From positions 1 through 64,000 of the IMG/VR virus record IMGVR_UViG_3300031111_000008: a DNA stretch of 64,000 bases; one strand, written 5' to 3'. Positions 19,535 through 59,642 of the stretch are shown here, one piece after another; the stretch's first letter is position 1, and each line of letters starts with the position of its first letter. The position numbers were made by a program, and so were the translations under genes. This DNA comes from a virus. The notes beneath the pieces were generated by a model that saw nothing but the letters and a program-made list of their open reading frames with translations, made no database searches and was not told where the DNA came from.

Positions 19535-19591
19535 GAGCCGCGACTTATCCGCAGTCTTGCCAAGGGGACTGGGTAATTCGCGGCTTATTTT
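19535..19591 (+). terminator. long hairpin plus T-tract in leader of Ser-rich gene
   Basis: GAGCCGCGA...TCGCGGCTT with inner CAGTCTT/GGGACTG, then ATTTT. Confidence 0.55.
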
Positions 19592-19607
19592 ATTGGAGCA
19601 ATGAAAC

Positions 19608-20294
19608 ATGACACGCCGAGTAACATTTTACCTTGGTCCTGCCGTAGGGTTGACTACACGGCGAATCACGATTGATCGGATGATGGGCGCTGGGGACGAT
19701 ACTACTCCGGCTACACAGGTCCATGTAAATTTGCCGGGGACTACGGAAGACACAACGCACGTTTTGCCCGATAACCGAATTTGGCGAGCGACTTTGGTGG
19801 ACACAAGAACTTCGGGGGAGGTGTCGGTTCCTGATTATCTCTATTTCAATACTGGTAGTTTGCAGTTTCCTGGACCGGATCCCAGGCGGGGGGCAAGGTT
19901 GCAAATTCTCTCTATGGAAGACCTTTCTTCCTCGTCGAGTTCGATCAGTACTTCTTCGATTTCGACTTCGAGTGTTTCTAGCAGTTCTTCCAGCAGCTCC
20001 TCGGCTAGTAGTTCGTCGAGCAGCTCGCAGAGTTCGTCTAGCAGCTCTTCGAGTTCTAGCAGCTCGATCAGCACGTCGAGTAGCTCGATCAGCACGTCTA
20101 GCGCGTCAAGTAGCTCGATCAGTACGTCCTCTATTAGTACATCGAGCAGTTCACAGTCGTCGAGTAGTTCCTCGTCGTTATCAAGCAGCTCTAGCAGCTC
20201 GATAAGTACTTCCAGTTCTTCTAGCAGCTCTAGCAGCTCGATAAGTACTTCCAGTTCTTCTAGCAGTTCCTCTGGCCTTGGGGCCGTCCCTTAA
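19608..20294 (+). CDS. head-region protein with ~105 aa domain and ~115 aa Ser-rich tail
   Basis: GGAG RBS; SSSSIST repeats. Confidence 0.85.
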   Translation: MTRRVTFYLGPAVGLTTRRITIDRMMGAGDDTTPATQVHVNLPGTTEDTTHVLPDNRIWRATLVDTRTSGEVSVPDYLYFNTGSLQFPGPDPRRGARLQILSMEDLSSSSSSISTSSISTSSVSSSSSSSSSASSSSSSSQSSSSSSSSSSSSISTSSSSISTSSASSSSISTSSISTSSSSQSSSSSSSLSSSSSSSISTSSSSSSSSSSISTSSSSSSSSGLGAVP

Positions 20295-32738: not shown

Positions 32739-33271
32739 GCGTTGAATCGTGGGCCAGACGTACGAGCGGGCTGTTGGTTCCGGCGATGGGATTTGCCACG
32801 GCCCGCTGGCGGTGGCAGTGTTGGGGGTGCGGGTGTTCGTCCTACAAAGATTGCAACGACTGCTACACGGGCGGGGCGTGGCCCAGTACCCTCTGGCTCG
32901 ATGTTCCGGCCCCATCCAACGGCACGTGTAGCAACTGTTCATGGTACGGCCAGACATACGCGTTGTCCAAGATGTTTGACTGCTTCTACCAATTCCAGGC
33001 GTCTGGCAGCGGAGCCGGACCGTGTGGGCCTCTCTTGACCTACACGCCGACCTTGTCGATCTTCGGCGGGATGCAGATAGATGCCGGGCAATGCCAATTG
33101 GCGGTGATCATAGGCCTCGACGACGGCGTCATAGGAGGGCCAGGCTTTGAGGCCGAGTGGCGATTGAATCTAGATGGTCCCGTCTCGCAAATTAATCACA
33201 CCCTAACACTCTATGCCGCCAGCGGTGCTATTTGCGATTTCGTCGGCAGCACGGTGGACCTCTATGAGTGA
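32735..33271 (+). CDS. Cys-rich hypothetical protein
   Basis: ATGA coupling; CWGCGC, CNDC, CSNC. Confidence 0.65.
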   Translation: MSVESWARRTSGLLVPAMGFATARWRWQCWGCGCSSYKDCNDCYTGGAWPSTLWLDVPAPSNGTCSNCSWYGQTYALSKMFDCFYQFQASGSGAGPCGPLLTYTPTLSIFGGMQIDAGQCQLAVIIGLDDGVIGGPGFEAEWRLNLDGPVSQINHTLTLYAASGAICDFVGSTVDLYE

Positions 33272-53718: not shown

Positions 53719-54840
53719 ATGTCCGAAGAAAATGGGAATGGAACCGAGGGGGTTTTTCAAGGTTTCGAGAAACCAAAAAGCAACTATTCAAAACTTCCAC
53801 ACGATTGGTTTCCGTACATCGCAAAAATGCAGCTTTCTGAATTGAAAGTAATGCTGTACATCCTTCGGCATACTTGGGGATTCAGCGAGTATGGAAAACC
53901 AAAACGGATTTCCTTGGATGAATTTGCCAACGGAAGATGGAAGAAAGACAGCACCAGAATGGATTGTGGTACTGGAATGTCGAAGTCGTCGGTGCGGGAA
54001 GGACTCCAAAAAGCAGTGGAGCACGGGTTCCTAGTCGTGGTGAAAAAGAGAGGTAAGAACAATTCTCCAGAGCATTCTTACTGTCTAAATGTGCTGGGAA
54101 CAAACCCCCCATCCACTGTAGTAGAATTCGGCACAGGTGTACTGAATTCCGATACACCGAAAACTGAATTCCGATACACCTCAGTACTAGAAAGAAACTT
54201 AGGAAAGAAACTTGGCAGAAAGTCGGACCCTGAAGGAACCGACAGCATGTGTGTTTCTGGCGATTCTCCCAACAAGTCTTCTGGAAATTTTAGAGAAGGT
54301 AAATTTTCTGGTAATTCTAATAATGGATCTTCTGGAAAAGGAAATAAGAAGGTTCCTACTTCTTGGGATTTGAAAGTAGCTAAGAAACTTCATAGTATTG
54401 TTTCTTCTCATATCAAAGTAAATGCAAAATCAAATATTCGGGAATGGGCAAACCACATCCGAATTTTGCGTGAGCATTACGAGGTAGACAAAGAAGACAT
54501 CATCACAGCATTGAAATGGTATTCTAGAAATATTGGAAAAGAGTATGTTGTTGAAGCGTTTTCTGGAAAAGCGTTCAAAGAGAAGTTTGTGAACGGACAA
54601 TTCAAACGAGCCTTCAACGAGGATGGTGGAGATGTCGAAGAACATCACAACCCCGAAATCGAAATTCAAGATCCGAAAACGGGAAAATGGCACAAGCGAG
54701 AAAAGCTCGATAAGTACAGAAGTGAATTTTTGAGAACTCATGGTCCCAGAATGATGAACCAAAAAGAGCTAAACGAGATTTTGGAAAAACACGGAATGGA
54801 ACCAGACAGCATTTCCTACAAAGCTGTGAATCAGGCGTAA
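53719..54840 (+). CDS. phage replication initiator (O/Rep-like, N-terminal HTH)
   Basis: NYSKLP, ELKV.LYILRHTWGF, ISL..F, TGMS.SSV..GL; upstream of DnaB. Confidence 0.8.
   Translation: MSEENGNGTEGVFQGFEKPKSNYSKLPHDWFPYIAKMQLSELKVMLYILRHTWGFSEYGKPKRISLDEFANGRWKKDSTRMDCGTGMSKSSVREGLQKAVEHGFLVVVKKRGKNNSPEHSYCLNVLGTNPPSTVVEFGTGVLNSDTPKTEFRYTSVLERNLGKKLGRKSDPEGTDSMCVSGDSPNKSSGNFREGKFSGNSNNGSSGKGNKKVPTSWDLKVAKKLHSIVSSHIKVNAKSNIREWANHIRILREHYEVDKEDIITALKWYSRNIGKEYVVEAFSGKAFKEKFVNGQFKRAFNEDGGDVEEHHNPEIEIQDPKTGKWHKREKLDKYRSEFLRTHGPRMMNQKELNEILEKHGMEPDSISYKAVNQA
54121..54345. other. putative replication origin (iterons plus AT-rich tract) inside initiator gene
   Basis: ACTGAATTCCGATACACC at 54141 and 54163; GAAAGAAACTT at 54190 and 54203; TTCTGGWAA x3 in AT-rich 54270-54345. 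Confidence 0.6.
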
Positions 54841-54858: not shown

Positions 54859-56229
54859 ATGAAAATCAAAAAGTTCAATCTTCAAAAAGCAAACTATGTG
54901 CTTGCTGGAATGATTTTGGATCCCACGGTTTGCGCCAGGATTTCTTCAAAATGGAAAATCGAAGGTTTGTTCGGTGGCAGATGGCAAAATATCGTAGCCG
55001 GATGGGCAGTCAAGCATTTCAAGGAATATGGGGAAGTTCTTGGCCAGGAAAGTGTGGAAGTCAGATTCTCCGAATGGGCTGCGAAGTCGAAAAGCGAAGC
55101 CGCAATAAATTCGATGGAGGAATTTTTCTACCAGTTCGACCAGAACTACGTCGAAAAAGTCCAGGGGATGTCGTCAGAGTACCTCTTGGATTTGGCCGGT
55201 CAGATCTTCGAGCGAGTCCGAATTAGGAACACAATTGAGCAAACTCAGTTCGATCTCGATGAGGATAACGTCGAGAAGGCGTCCAGGAGGCTCGCTGAGA
55301 GCCTCAAAGTGGAATTAGGTGCTGGGAGTCTCTTCAAGCCTGCAAGCGACTACGAGCGATGGCAGGCGGCTTTTGACGCAGATCAGTCAGAACCGTTAAT
55401 TACGTATCCTGGGGCAATTGGGAAACATTTCGGGAGCGACTTCTCCCGTGATTCGTTCGTCTCGTTCATCGGCATCACGGGAATCGGGAAATCTTTCTTC
55501 CTCCTGGATGCCGCCTATAGGGCAGTGAGACAGCTAAGAAGGGTGGCTTTCTTCGAGTGCGGGGACATGTCCGAAAGCCAGCTGACGCGGCGGATGGGGC
55601 AGCGGGCATTGCGCCGTCCGAAGAAAAGTTGCGAAGTCAAACGTCCGCTTGGGTGGGACGGCGATGGTATTCTCGAAACTGAGGAAATGAGGTTGGAAGG
55701 AATTTCTCCTCAAGAGTCGTATCGTGAGTGGCGAAAGATTTCGAGGAAGAGGGATCTGTTGAGAGTTTCTTGCCATTCAAACATCTCAATAAATGCGGAA
55801 GGGATTAGTTCGATTGTCGAGGATTGGGCGAGGGAAGGTTGGTTGCCAGACTGCGTGATTTGCGACTACGCCGACATCCTTGCTCCTCCTCCAGGAATTC
55901 GAGAATATAGAGATCAGATAAACGCGACGTGGCAGAGGTTGAGGAGGCTGAGCCAGGATTTTCACTGTTTGGTTCTGACGGCTACGCAGGCCGACGCGGA
56001 GAGTTATGAGAAGGGGTTGTTGACATTGCGAAGTTTTACCAACGACAGAAGGAAGAACGATCACGTCACGGCGATGATAGGTTTGAATTCCAACGTCGAG
56101 GAAAAGGAGGAAGGAACTTATCGGATCAACTTCATCAAGCGGCGTGAGGACGAGTTTAGCGTAAAGCGGGTTTGCAAAGTGGCGGGATCGTTGGCGATGG
56201 GTTGTCCGATTTTGGTTTCGAGTTTTTGA
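54859..56229 (+). CDS. DnaB-like replicative helicase
   Basis: GITGIGKS, FFECGDM, ICDYADIL, LTATQ, K.R. Confidence 0.88.
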   Translation: MKIKKFNLQKANYVLAGMILDPTVCARISSKWKIEGLFGGRWQNIVAGWAVKHFKEYGEVLGQESVEVRFSEWAAKSKSEAAINSMEEFFYQFDQNYVEKVQGMSSEYLLDLAGQIFERVRIRNTIEQTQFDLDEDNVEKASRRLAESLKVELGAGSLFKPASDYERWQAAFDADQSEPLITYPGAIGKHFGSDFSRDSFVSFIGITGIGKSFFLLDAAYRAVRQLRRVAFFECGDMSESQLTRRMGQRALRRPKKSCEVKRPLGWDGDGILETEEMRLEGISPQESYREWRKISRKRDLLRVSCHSNISINAEGISSIVEDWAREGWLPDCVICDYADILAPPPGIREYRDQINATWQRLRRLSQDFHCLVLTATQADAESYEKGLLTLRSFTNDRRKNDHVTAMIGLNSNVEEKEEGTYRINFIKRREDEFSVKRVCKVAGSLAMGCPILVSSF

Positions 56230-56841: not shown

Positions 56842-57717
56842 ATGGGTGTAGAGGTTTTGCTGGACGATGCTGTCGACATTTTGAAAGTCATGGGGAACGA
56901 GCAGGCGGGTAGGTGGAAGAAGGAGAGGGTTTGCAAGGAGTTTGACAAGCAGGTTTTGTTTGAGGAGTGGGACGACGAGCTGTTCAAGATGTATAAGTTC
57001 AACCGCCGACTCAAGCGGTTGCTCGTCAAGATTGCGGGGTTGGACGATGCTGATGAAGTTGAGATTATTGACAACACTGAGGATGCCGAGGACGACGTTA
57101 GTGAGCAGGAAGAGTTTGAGGATGGAACCGATGCGGAAGAGGAGGATGACGACGATTCCCTCGAAGACGATGATGAGGAGGATGACGATGAGAGCGAGGT
57201 CGGGTCGGACGTTGTGGATGATGGCGCTGAGGATGCTGATATCGATGGTGACAAAGATGATGAAGGGGAAGTAGAGGGAGCTACAGAAGGAGTCACCATT
57301 GGGGAGCATGTGATTTCGGTGGGCGATTGGGTGGAAGTGAACGATCCCGCCTATCCGGTGCCGTACAAGGGGCAGCTGAAGGAAATTCAGAATGAGAAGT
57401 ACGGCCTCGTCGTTACGGTGCATGACAAGGAGTGGGAGCAGGCGTTCGAGCACATGACTCCTTGTGCTGCTCCCAAGCGAGCCAAGAGCAAGCCGAAGCT
57501 CAATCGGCAGCAGTGCGTGATGAAGGTTTTGAAGGGACTGAAGAAACCTACGCCGATGGGTACGGTGCTGAAACTTTCTGACGAGGCTTTCGTCGATCAG
57601 GGAGGAAAGCGCAAGGGGAATGCGGATCAGGTGAAGAAGTACCTCGATACGATTTTGGAGGTTCTTGTTTACTTTGGGAAGGCAAAGGTTGAAGGGAAGA
57701 TGGTTTCCGTGAAGTGA
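56842..57717 (+). CDS. protein with highly acidic linker, SH3/KOW-like domain and basic winged-helix-like C-terminus
   Basis: D/E-rich central 90 aa; VGDWVEV; basic C-terminus. Confidence 0.8.
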   Translation: MGVEVLLDDAVDILKVMGNEQAGRWKKERVCKEFDKQVLFEEWDDELFKMYKFNRRLKRLLVKIAGLDDADEVEIIDNTEDAEDDVSEQEEFEDGTDAEEEDDDDSLEDDDEEDDDESEVGSDVVDDGAEDADIDGDKDDEGEVEGATEGVTIGEHVISVGDWVEVNDPAYPVPYKGQLKEIQNEKYGLVVTVHDKEWEQAFEHMTPCAAPKRAKSKPKLNRQQCVMKVLKGLKKPTPMGTVLKLSDEAFVDQGGKRKGNADQVKKYLDTILEVLVYFGKAKVEGKMVSVK

Positions 57718-57723
57718 TTGGTG

Positions 57724-57861
57724 GCAATCCCGTAGCAGAATTGGTAAATGCACACTAACAGGTGGAGAAGACCAGTGGCCCGACGTGGCCATCTCCAGAG
57801 CTACGCTGATTAAATATCGGGAGAAACTTCTCATTGCTGGTTCAAGTCCAGTCGGGGTTGC
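57724..57861 (+). ncRNA. tRNA-like RNA 1 (acceptor, D and T arms; 84-nt non-canonical centre)
   Basis: GCAATCCCG/CGGGGTTGC; TAGCAGAATTGGTAAATGC; GCTGG-TTCAAGT-CCAGT. Confidence 0.75.
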
Positions 57862-57888
57862 TTGAGTTTGTGGGGTTGTTTGTTGCGC

Positions 57889-57940
57889 GAGCCGGTTCCC
57901 GGTGTTTTGGCTCGATGGCATTCGCCGGGGGCCGGTTTTT
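57889..57940 (+). terminator. intrinsic terminator-like hairpin before csrA
   Basis: AGCCGGTTCCCGGTG/CGCCGGGGGCCGGTT then TTT. Confidence 0.65.
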
Positions 57941-57961
57941 AATCGAAAGGAGTCTGAAGAA

Positions 57962-58168
57962 ATGTTGGTTTTGTCTCGCAAGAAAAACGAGAGTATCATC
58001 ATCAACGATGACATAACAATTGTTGTTGTTGAGATACGTGGTGATAAATGCAGGCTCGGAATCGAATGTGACAAGTCCATTCCAGTACATAGAAAGGAAG
58101 TCTACGATGCCATTCAAAGGCAGGAACAGAAAAGTTCCACTGCCCCAAAAGCATCCGACGGTACATAA
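57962..58168 (+). CDS. csrA: carbon storage regulator (RNA-binding translational regulator)
   Basis: MLVLSRKKNESIIINDDITIVVVEIRGDK.RLGI....IPVHRKEVY; AAGGAG RBS. Confidence 0.95.
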   Translation: MLVLSRKKNESIIINDDITIVVVEIRGDKCRLGIECDKSIPVHRKEVYDAIQRQEQKSSTAPKASDGT

Positions 58169-58289
58169 CTTTTTGGATTTAACCGGGCAGACTTTCGGCA
58201 GACTAGTTGTAGATTACTACGGAGGGCGGGTGGAAGACAAGCCTTCGTGGATTTGTACTTGCGTGTGTGGAAATACTAATGAGGGTTGA
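58107..58289 (+). pseudogene. N-terminal remnant of HNH/AP2-type homing endonuclease
   Basis: DLTGQTFGRLVV...WICTCVCGN then stop. Confidence 0.7.
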
Positions 58290-58307
58290 GTTTTTTCAGT
58301 TGTGGTG

Positions 58308-58411
58308 GTAGCCCCGTGGCGGAATTGGTATACGCCTGCTCGCAAAGGAAGAGGATCCAGTCAGTTAGAACGGGCCTGGACATTTGCTGGTTCGACTCCA
58401 GCCGGGGCTAC
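58308..58411 (+). ncRNA. tRNA-like RNA 2 (Leu/Ser-type D arm and T arm, no canonical anticodon arm)
   Basis: GTAGCCCCG/CGGGGCTAC; TGGCGGAATTGGTATACGC; GCTGG-TTCGACT-CCAGC. Confidence 0.78.
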
Positions 58412-58459
58412 TTTTATTTGGCAGTGGAAATTGGTTGACTTAGAAAAGGAGAATTCAGA

Positions 58460-59203
58460 GTGGCAAGACTCAATCAGATTATTGCGTTGGTGAAGGGCAG
58501 GAAGGCAGAGGTTCAGTCGGCTTTGACTCTGATCTACCATCAATGCCAGAAGACGGATCTCTTCGCGGGACTGGTGAAGACTTACGAACCCAGCGACGAG
58601 GAAGGGGAACGCTACCCTGGTGACGAGAAGCGGCTTCAGCTTCGCGTCGAGGAGCTTCTGCAACAGGTGGGTAAGGAGAGCAGCAAGCTGTTCGACGTGG
58701 TCGAGTTGCAGGATAGGATGAACTGCGAGACGAAAGCCAATGTGGTAGTCGACGGCGCGGTGGTTCTCAATGACGTTCCGCCTACTCATTTGCTCTTTCT
58801 GGAGCATAAGCTGGTGGATTTCATTACTCTGCTCGAAAAGATTCCCGTCCTGGATCCCGCCAAGAATTGGTCTTATTCGGACGAGGGCCGCTGTTTCCGT
58901 TCCGACCCGATTCGGAGAACCAAAACGAAGAAGGTTCCCCGGTTCAAGTCAGTGGCGGAAGCTACCGTACAGCATCCCGAGCAGGTTGTTCAGATCACGG
59001 AGGACATTGTGGAGGGAACTTGGACGACTGTGGAGTTCTCTGGGGCGGTTAGCGAGGAAAGGAAGCATCAGCTAATCAGCCGGGCGAGGAAGCTTAAGGA
59101 TGCCGTGATCGCAGCCAGGGAGGAGGCCAATTCGGCAAAGGTGGGCTTGAAGCCTTCCGTTGGAAAATCAGTGTTTGACTTCTTATTGAAGGAGGATGCT
59201 TAA
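58460..59203 (+). CDS. conserved uncharacterised protein (MxxLNQIIAxxKG family)
   Basis: AAGGAG RBS; G..KTYEP.DEEGE..P, A.VVVDG, VP.T.LLFLE..L, P.LDP, AT..HP.QV, G.W....FSGA, AV..AREEAN. Confidence 0.88.
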   Translation: MARLNQIIALVKGRKAEVQSALTLIYHQCQKTDLFAGLVKTYEPSDEEGERYPGDEKRLQLRVEELLQQVGKESSKLFDVVELQDRMNCETKANVVVDGAVVLNDVPPTHLLFLEHKLVDFITLLEKIPVLDPAKNWSYSDEGRCFRSDPIRRTKTKKVPRFKSVAEATVQHPEQVVQITEDIVEGTWTTVEFSGAVSEERKHQLISRARKLKDAVIAAREEANSAKVGLKPSVGKSVFDFLLKEDA

Positions 59204-59208
59204 CAAAA

Positions 59209-59545
59209 TAGGATGAAAGTTTTAGTCTCAGATTCTTCTTGATCTAGCAGCGTGGATAAATGAAGCGCGGCGAATCAGAATTAGACTATCATCCTAGCAT
59301 CAGAATTGCACCAAAAGGTCACATCAAGTCCCGATGTCAATATTGTCATGATGACGGTTCAATCCCGTCCTTCCGCTCTTGGGCAGAAACAACTAAGCGG
59401 AAGTAGCTCAATGGCCAGAGCAATGGCATTTAAGAATGAACGGAGGGTTTAGCGGAGAACGGTGGCCTGTGATTGTTGGTGAAAAATCATGTTAAAATGA
59501 TGCACAAGCTCCTCGGGGGACGGATAATGCCTCCGGGGAGCGTTT
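59209..59545 (+). ncRNA. large structured RNA containing a circularly permuted tRNA-like (YrlA/Y-RNA-type) module
   Basis: T arm 59353-59369, looped acceptor stem 59370-59403, D arm 59406-59421, enclosed by several long-range helices; 5' and 3' hairpins. Confidence 0.8.
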
Positions 59546-59547
59546 TA

Positions 59548-59620
59548 ACCGGGGAGGTTGCTGGTTTACCCGCCCAGCCTCATAAGTTGGGTTACGACGG
59601 TTCGATTCCGTCCCCCGGAA
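59548..59620 (+). tRNA. tRNA with CAT anticodon (Met/Ile2), atypical D arm and 1:72 mismatch
   Basis: CCGGGG/CCCCGG acceptor; CCAGC-CTCATAA-GTTGG; GACGG-TTCGATT-CCGTC; no encoded CCA. Confidence 0.7.
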
Positions 59621-59642
59621 CTTTGGTAGTAAAGCAAACCCC

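Follow-up and report, generated by a model that had tools for sequence, protein, structure and literature searches.

Here, we describe two RNA genes, T1 and T2, in a 64,000-nucleotide (nt) stretch of viral DNA (the window; positions 1 to 64,000 of IMG/VR virus record IMGVR_UViG_3300031111_000008), which is part of a 92,111-bp virus record with an estimated completeness of 97%. Both genes keep the acceptor stem, D arm and T arm of a tRNA-Leu as an intact shell, while the anticodon and variable arms are replaced by a gene-specific insert, the centre. They sit in a co-directional replication operon, one on either side of csrA. We show that the Leu-type shell is conserved over hundreds of phage elements, whose centres vary between lineages and covary within them. 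Our favoured reading, in which we place about even confidence, is that T1 and T2 are paralogous, non-decoding phage "tRNA-Leu shell" RNAs with the build of phage T5 RNA1, probably cut from the operon transcript and carrying the insert as their likely working part.

The shell was recognized in both genes down to its tertiary contacts. Each has a 7-bp acceptor stem, U8, a 3-bp D stem, G18 and G19, a U at the position of U48 and a T loop of the form TTCRANN; all elements stand at exact tRNA spacing, and every nucleotide engaged in tertiary interactions is kept (Table 1). The arms follow the normal 5'-to-3' order of a tRNA with open acceptor ends, not a permuted one. An original prediction, made from the DNA letters before this analysis, had listed a shared 5' motif (CCCG, TR, GCR, GAATTGGTAWA, YGC) and a shared 3' motif (GCTGG, TTCRAST, CCAGY, CGGGG). 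Both motifs are present in T1 and T2, neither gene encodes CCA, and the proposed start of T1 is exact, with the extended stem of T2 running from 58308. The acceptor stems had also been described as extendable to 9 bp with compensatory differences, which can be read off both sequences. Leader and trailer pair in each gene, giving an acceptor helix of 9 Watson-Crick pairs and one G.U pair (9-10 bp), the latter available to positions 57723 in T1 and 58307 in T2. Three pairs, 2:71, 12:23 (in the D stem) and -1:73, show double compensatory differences between the two genes, and the description of T1 and T2 as paralogues is supported.

A strict shell finder, applied to both strands of the 92-kb genome, returned exactly two sites, T1 and T2, compared with a mean of 0.17 sites on 30 dinucleotide shuffles of the genome. 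Covariance model R1, built from 45 members of the family described below with T1 and T2 left out, also scores real tRNAs; in the window it ranked T2 first and T1 second (Table 1), the next match reaching 11 bits. This third match (window 32947-33008, minus strand, E = 0.9) has a Leu-type D-loop string, lacks a T arm and is probably due to chance. The Rfam tRNA model (RF00005), run in E-value mode, scored T2 above its gathering score of 29 bits through nothing but the shell, the anticodon arm being replaced in the alignment by an insertion of 46 nt; T1 gave no match at E up to 10. ARAGORN found no transfer-messenger RNA (tmRNA); T1 and T2 have a full D arm and a Leu-type body instead. T1 begins 7 nt past the stop codon of a 291-aa open reading frame (ORF). 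On the opposite strand, a 422-aa ORF across T1 was rejected as spurious, having no family match and a codon log-odds of 0.01 per codon, compared with 0.40 for the rightward 291-aa ORF; these codon statistics rule out an antisense coding explanation for T1.

Table 1 Features of the T1/T2 region, in window coordinates.
Feature	Position	Strand	Evidence and remarks
291-aa ORF upstream of T1	56842..57717	+	No family match; codon log-odds 0.40 per codon
T1, whole tRNA-Leu-shell RNA gene	57724..57862	+	Shell finder; R1 41.3 bits, E 6e-9
T1 acceptor 5' strand	57724..57732	+	Pairs with 57853-57861; canonical 7 bp at 57726-57732; extra pairs from 57724-57725
T1 D arm, Leu type	57735..57751	+	3-bp stem, 11-nt loop with G18 G19
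T1 centre, 84 nt	57752..57835	+	Contiguous 5-bp stem with 7-nt anticodon loop absent; can form several alternative hairpins
T1 T arm	57836..57852	+	5-bp stem, T loop TTCAAGT
T1 acceptor 3' strand	57853..57861	+	Discriminator G at 57860; CCA not encoded; U-rich tract after
Two terminator-like GC hairpins with U tracts	57891..57941	+	Between T1 and csrA ribosome-binding site
csrA, 68 aa, between T1 and T2	57962..58168	+	Pfam CsrA E 2e-24; PHROG CsrA-like regulator
T2, whole tRNA-Leu-shell RNA gene	58308..58411	+	Rfam tRNA 35.2 bits; R1 65.1 bits, E 2e-15; shell finder
T2 acceptor 5' strand	58308..58316	+	Pairs with 58403-58411; canonical 7 bp at 58310-58316; two extra pairs
T2 D arm, Leu type	58319..58335	+	Identical to D arm of genuine Anaerolineales tRNA-Leu(GAG)
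T2 centre, 50 nt	58336..58385	+	Three GGA motifs; two mutually crossing 5-bp helices possible
T2 T arm	58386..58402	+	5-bp stem, T loop TTCGACT
T2 acceptor 3' strand	58403..58411	+	Discriminator A at 58410; CCA not encoded; U tract directly after; flagged terminator-like
DUF7873 gene, directly 3' of T2	58460..59203	+	Pfam PF25283 E 5e-85

The centres had been called unrelated, and both their lengths and their lack of similarity hold: we found no resemblance of the T1 and T2 centres to each other or to any other centre among 506 fetched loci. The hairpins named in the original prediction all exist in the sequence, but constrained folding offers alternatives to them, among which is a long-range 6-bp helix in the T1 centre (57766-57771/57827-57832). 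The crossing helices that can form in the T2 centre are 58338-58342/58371-58375 and 58356-58360/58376-58380. Complementarity of either centre to the phage genome extends to 11 nt at most, inside the range of shuffled sequences, and a guide or antisense role was rejected because a match of this length is at chance level.

The over-long gap between D and T arms raises the possibility that T2, and perhaps T1, is a genuine tRNA gene with a short intron. In neither gene does a 5-bp stem with a 7-nt loop stack on the D stem to present a readable anticodon. ARAGORN in its default run, for which a pseudogene or undetermined call had been expected, detected neither. In intron mode, it gave a clean-looking solution for T2, in which removal of 21 nt after C32 leaves a tRNA-Leu(UAG) with a 5-bp anticodon stem and the canonical anticodon loop CUUAGAA. 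In line with this explanation, a viral element (L166) resembling a real tRNA-Leu(CAA) carries a hairpin insert at the same position, and "enigmatic" tRNA introns have been reported in Lak phages (PMC6784885). However, when shuffled centres were placed in the T2 shell, an intron-containing tRNA was still called in 313 of 400 trials (78%), 33 of the 400 (8%) with a Leu identity, and the intron-mode anticodons across 147 related elements were scattered (Leu in 18 of 104). The T2 call is at chance level. For T1, the solution was a tRNA-Ile(GAU) with a 49-nt insert and only three of five anticodon-stem pairs, an identity mismatched to its Leu body. Moreover, inserts of 21 and 49 nt are far below the size of group I introns, no Rfam intron or ribozyme model matched T1 or T2, and the phage genome encodes neither RtcB nor an Rnl-type RNA ligase (nor a CCA-adding enzyme), although a host ligase could act in their place. 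We therefore regard an interrupted tRNA as very unlikely: no recognizable intron was found whose removal leaves a canonical tRNA. The Lak megaphage intron tRNAs are similar to T1 and T2 in being over-long, missed by bacterial tRNA finders and scored in intron mode alone, and their inserts are likewise unexplained; they were read as tRNAs with recoverable anticodons (PMC6784885), in contrast to the chance-level solutions obtained here.

To place T1 and T2 in a wider context, viral contigs were searched for sites at which an over-long gap lies between a Leu-type D loop and a T loop; the numbers of loci and contigs found are lower bounds. At least 220 viral loci showed this arrangement, and a perfect 7-bp acceptor stem stood at the offsets expected of a tRNA in 176 of 204 candidates. 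The Leu-type shell with a replaced centre occurred in at least 170 phage contigs. Altogether, 147 distinct elements share the shell, with centres of 44-101 nt that are unrelated between lineages, and shorter family members have a centre of ~36 nt, likewise without an anticodon arm. Some contigs hold several copies in which one shell is combined with different centres. Genuine tRNA-Leu genes are present in the same contigs as shells, indicating that the shells are not the tRNA-Leu of those phages. The flanks resemble those of adjacent genuine tRNA genes, with T at -1, shared trailers and CCA seldom encoded, a picture that fits processing by the tRNA machinery. Inside a given centre family, helices covary (e.g., CAG/CTG, CGGG/CCCG and CTGG/CCAG) and motifs are conserved; the centres are therefore structured and constrained. 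Both neighbouring genes are co-oriented for 80 of 113 family elements, and few members of the family (~7%) have the 9-10 bp acceptor helix. R1 recovered T1, T2, T5 RNA1 and other phage members.

Closer relatives were sought as well. BLAST of 57700-58450 against 50,697 phage records found no close homologue of T1 or T2, and the T1/T2 shell pattern gave one truncated match in viral contigs. The Leu-shell family is absent from Rfam, and we found no description of it in the literature searched. No common neighbour gene emerged for the family. Frequent neighbours of 245 and 158 aa were rejected as candidates: they are DUF2303-like and NinG proteins of a single phage lineage, and profile comparison showed the 245-aa protein to be unrelated to DUF7873. 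In Bacteroides phage BS-TP2 (PQ571275.1, ~19550-19657; L305:3495-3602), an unannotated Leu-shell RNA scoring 79.8 bits lies between the DUF2303/YfdQ gene and ninG, and the same synteny (DUF2303/YfdQ, Leu shell, ninG) was seen in ~14 viral contigs. A metagenome-assembled genome of Victivallales (L422:1148-1279) holds a Leu-type shell with an 81-nt centre (R1 58.6 bits), at a locus that shows no tblastx similarity to the present phage.

These observations bear on whether T1 and T2 are decaying, functionless tRNA-Leu pseudogenes. The missing canonical anticodon arm and the failure to find close homologues would be in line with decay. Decay, however, would strike every arm and not the centre alone, and what we see is the opposite: all stems are intact, three double compensatory differences separate the paralogues, all tertiary-interaction nucleotides are kept, and the same pattern recurs in hundreds of phages. 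The probability of this explanation is close to negligible in our view. The claim of the original prediction that the shell reflects selection rather than decay is borne out by the recurrence of the shell with perfect acceptor stems, the compensatory stem changes, the covariation of centres within subfamilies and the exclusion of a coding explanation.

The source of the shell can be traced to cellular tRNA-Leu. In its shell, T2 departs from a genuine Anaerolineales tRNA-Leu(GAG) only at one base of the T loop and at acceptor pairs one and two, and the T1/T2 5' shell pattern retrieved from bacterial genomes mostly genuine tRNA-Leu genes (anticodons CAA, GAG, TAA, TAG and CAG; centres of 31-35 nt). 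The near-identical T2 shell and the retrieved genes suggest that the T1 and T2 shells derive from or mimic cellular tRNA-Leu. With bacterial class-II tRNA-Leu (RF00005) they have acceptor, D-arm and T-arm sequences in common; they differ in lacking a contiguous anticodon arm and a normal variable arm, and in centres of 84 and 50 nt as opposed to 31-35 nt. The discriminator is A73, the Leu type, in T2 and G73 in T1.

Such likeness could itself be the function, if the RNAs served as decoys or competitors for leucyl-tRNA synthetase (LeuRS), EF-Tu, the CCA-adding enzyme, or defence nucleases or transferases that target the acceptor end, the loss of the anticodon arm merely preventing miscoding. 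For E. coli LeuRS, the identity elements are A73 and the D/T tertiary core, not the anticodon. This independence from the anticodon, the near-identity of the T2 shell (with its A73) to cellular tRNA-Leu(GAG), the presence of A73 in 127 of 157 family members and the early-operon position of both genes in a phage without tRNA genes are all consistent with mimicry. On the other hand, T1 carries G73, positions 73-75 are paired with the leader in T1 and T2, a decoy has no need of structured and covarying centres, and no defence or counter-defence gene is linked to T1 or T2 at the locus. We consider a purely shell-directed role distinctly unlikely.

Among characterized RNAs, the closest counterpart of T1 and T2 is found in phage T5, whose RNA1 and RNA2 (NC_005859 30501-30644 and 32959-33083) are annotated as "tRNA-like stable RNA with unknown functions". 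In common with T1 and T2, RNA1 has a T arm, an acceptor helix at tRNA spacing and a Leu-type D arm whose loop is the same, and its ~80-nt centre lacks an anticodon arm; its R1 score of 44.3 bits is above that of T5's own tRNA-Leu. Its centre is unrelated to those of T1 and T2. The T5 RNAs lie in a large tRNA gene cluster and are stable RNAs known from experiment, whereas T1 and T2 lie around csrA within the replication operon of a phage that has no tRNA genes, and leader-trailer pairing extends their acceptor helices to 9-10 bp. In the literature searched, we found no function for T5 RNA1. Species 1 RNA (rnaC) and species 2 RNA (rnaD) of phage T4 resemble T1 and T2 as small RNAs without known function, and those of T4 are stable and adjoin phage tRNAs. 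rnaC has a canonical T arm and a partial R1 match (25.9 bits), but lacks a Leu-type D arm and pairs imperfectly in the acceptor at its annotated ends; rnaD has no T-arm motif, so that any kinship of the T4 RNAs to T1 and T2 is loose.

A further group of non-decoding mimics of the acceptor, D and T arms is formed by the YrlA-type Y RNAs of bacteria and phages, some of which are substrates of RNase P as well as of the CCA-adding enzyme (PMC4201824). YrlA RNAs are permuted (T arm, loop-closed acceptor, D arm), have a Ro60-binding stem and adjoin the Ro60 gene. T1 and T2 are not of this type: their order is normal, their ends are open, and a TROVE (Ro60) search found no match in the phage genome, while control genomes did match.

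The genomic setting of T1 and T2 adds to the argument. All genes around them run rightward: a replication-initiator-like gene (53719-54840) is followed by a DnaB-like helicase gene (54859-56229), the 291-aa ORF, T1, csrA, T2 (which ends 49 nt before the DUF7873 gene), DUF7873, a structured RNA, and genes for a sliding clamp, a UDG-exonuclease, an MT-A70 methylase and DNA polymerase A. The identification of csrA between the two elements is confirmed by its Pfam match. ARAGORN in default mode found no canonical tRNA gene in the whole phage genome; the two shells stand early in the operon. We show that tRNA-like elements recur near csrA elsewhere: a same-strand T arm lies within 250 nt upstream of csrA at 16 of 80 viral csrA loci, the 16 falling into four unrelated lineages, where 0.34 matches are expected from the background rate (P ~4e-4 at the lineage level). 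These lineages comprise 1) a clade whose minihelices consist of acceptor and T arm without a D arm and vary in their centres, 2) a Ser-type shell, 3) a further tRNA-like element, and 4) a canonical tRNA(CAU). In two other csrA phages, the sole R1 matches are Leu shells near csrA, one shell lying 200 nt upstream in one case and two lying in tandem 1.1 kb downstream in the other. In the minihelix clade (L361-L382), the conserved csrA leader holds, ~110-190 nt upstream of the gene, a compact D-arm-less tRNA-like minihelix of 63-100 nt with a variable centre and compensatory acceptor changes, together with a CACAAGGAUAC-like CsrA-site motif and, ahead of the ribosome-binding site, a GC hairpin similar to those that precede csrA here.

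This setting invites the simpler explanation that the shells act only in cis, as punctuation that serves RNase P and 3' nucleases or as terminator-like insulators setting the ends, stability and dosage of the csrA mRNA, the released RNAs and their centres being functionless. Of the three roles named in the original prediction (scaffold for cargo RNA, RNase P/Z processing mark, decoy), punctuation draws indirect support from the tRNA or tRNA-like genes that recur just upstream of phage csrA. In four other phage lineages such a gene, with minihelix forms and one canonical tRNA among the cases, stands no more than 250 nt upstream of csrA. This is in line with a cis-acting role, as are the position of T1 immediately after a stop codon with two terminator-like hairpins behind it, the U tract directly after the T2 helix, and the T1 and T2 centres, for which neither homologues nor targets in the phage genome were found. 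Yet the centres found across the family exceed a normal anticodon region in length, covary and have conserved motifs, which is not expected of unconstrained sequence; a complete Leu-type D arm and elbow exceed what a processing minihelix needs; and the csrA relative L319 has its two tandem shells 1.1 kb downstream of csrA, which they do not bracket. A role limited to punctuation thus appears rather unlikely.

The proximity to csrA could also point to a CsrA-titrating sponge, in which GGA motifs of the inserts bind phage or host CsrA in the manner of CsrB or RsmZ and the tRNA frame provides stability. The 50-nt centre of T2 contains three GGA motifs, one in a predicted hairpin loop, T1 and T2 flank csrA, and csrA phages G001 and G002 have shells as their sole tRNA-shaped genes. 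Nevertheless, the five csrA-linked centres together hold 8 GGA motifs where 6.6 are expected, and the ratio for the family is 0.9; GGA is not enriched, and a sponge role is left without support on that count. GGA motifs are mostly paired in predicted folds, and most family members are not near csrA. The sponge is an extremely doubtful explanation.

The favoured reading of T1 and T2 as excised, non-decoding shell RNAs implies the following course of events. The acceptor/T-arm helix and the D/T elbow are the features recognized by RNase P, 3' tRNA-processing nucleases, and CCA-adding and tRNA-modifying enzymes, and for this reason each shell is probably cut from the polycistronic transcript. Host tRNA-processing enzymes would excise T1 and T2 as compact, nuclease-resistant RNAs of ~100-140 nt, and this cleavage would also detach the csrA message from the neighbouring parts of the transcript. 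Once freed, the RNAs would be unable to read codons, and the insert shown on the tRNA frame would be the likely working part, acting with some partner. In view of the leader-trailer pairing and U-rich tracts, the shells may also affect transcription and the timing of RNase P: helices of 9-10 bp followed by U-rich tracts could slow or stop transcription, delay RNase P cleavage and insulate csrA expression. The compensated leader-trailer helix suggests that the unprocessed form matters.

Several observations weigh against this reading. Excision and stability of T1 and T2, though probable, are drawn from the predicted fold and from analogy with T5 RNA1. Pairing of the leader with the trailer over positions 73-75 should hinder RNase P, and a free NCCA end would be absent until trimming. 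The G73 of T1 departs from the A73 of tRNA-Leu. We found no homologue of either the T1 or the T2 centre, and as a consequence the structures drawn for these two centres stand without covariation support. An H-type pseudoknot was rejected as a universal centre fold, since the crossing helices (S1/S2) are only modestly enriched in the family, with a mean z of 0.74 and 29% of elements beating 95% of shuffles. Finally, T1, T2 and csrA are absent at this position in the closest DUF7873 relatives, indicating that the arrangement is specific to this lineage.

To our knowledge, the tRNA-shaped stable RNAs of T4 and T5 have been without a known function for decades. T1 and T2 join a family of which T5 RNA1 is a long-known member, and our results show that uncultured phages very commonly carry RNAs of the Leu-shell build. 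What is specific to the present phage is the lack of canonical tRNAs, the bracketing of csrA in a replication operon and the compensated helices of 9-10 bp. Because a phage can have shells and no other tRNA-shaped gene, shells do not arise as by-products of tRNA clusters, and their recurrence beside csrA in several lineages provides a concrete link to expression or function. Identifying a function would make sense of a large class of phage genes that lack annotation, and would reveal that the tRNA scaffold, already exploited by synthetic biologists, is also put to use in nature. A wider proposal, which we put forward as speculative and rather improbable, is that phages use the upper body of tRNA-Leu as a universal handle (for RNase P/Z processing, nuclease resistance, and perhaps CCA addition or leucylation) that displays exchangeable RNA modules acting on host factors. 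In csrA phages, shells and csrA would then form one regulatory unit, here also with the DUF7873 gene and the permuted RNA, reprogramming the post-transcriptional control of the host early in infection.

The DUF7873 gene downstream of T2 has RNA neighbours of its own. A profile scan of metagenomes for DUF7873 returned 80 loci, and a single-protein scan of viral contigs returned none. At 57 of 65 metagenomic loci (L224-L303), the 700 nt after DUF7873 contain one permuted tRNA-like module or two, in each of which the order is T arm, loop-closed acceptor, D arm. A tRNA or shell upstream of the gene, in the placement of T2, was found at 9 of 63 loci, and in the close relative L225 a Leu-type shell follows the permuted RNA. 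The structure model of DUF7873 is confident (pLDDT 90.8). Foldseek returned nothing at E ≤ 0.001, a profile search of PDB sequences returned nothing, and the best VIA match, 3kdq, a protein without known function (Z 9, root-mean-square deviation 7.7), is uninformative. In the window, a structured RNA (59204-59545) comes right after DUF7873, ~800 nt downstream of T2; the second permuted module and the shared terminator hairpin are kept and the first module is absent. A fourth tRNA-like element (59532-59621) has a perfect T arm and a 7-bp acceptor and is called by ARAGORN at relaxed thresholds alone; its 5' acceptor strand doubles as the 3' half of the preceding RNA's terminator hairpin.

Two other kinds of modified tRNA gene came to light in the fetched loci. 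In bacterial loci L394, L396, L421, L427, L456, L468, L474 and L490, tRNA-Leu genes are normal up to the anticodon loop and then continue into unrelated sequence; these interrupted genes may carry group I introns or be integration junctions. In class-I tRNA shells (L002:3130-3263, L132:3225-3357, L152:6911-7041, L176:9254-9386 and others), a long helix prolongs the anticodon stem and has a permuted tRNA-like module at its end. This "tRNA inside a tRNA" build is kept in seven viral loci and resembles a Lak phage intron said to encode a tRNA.

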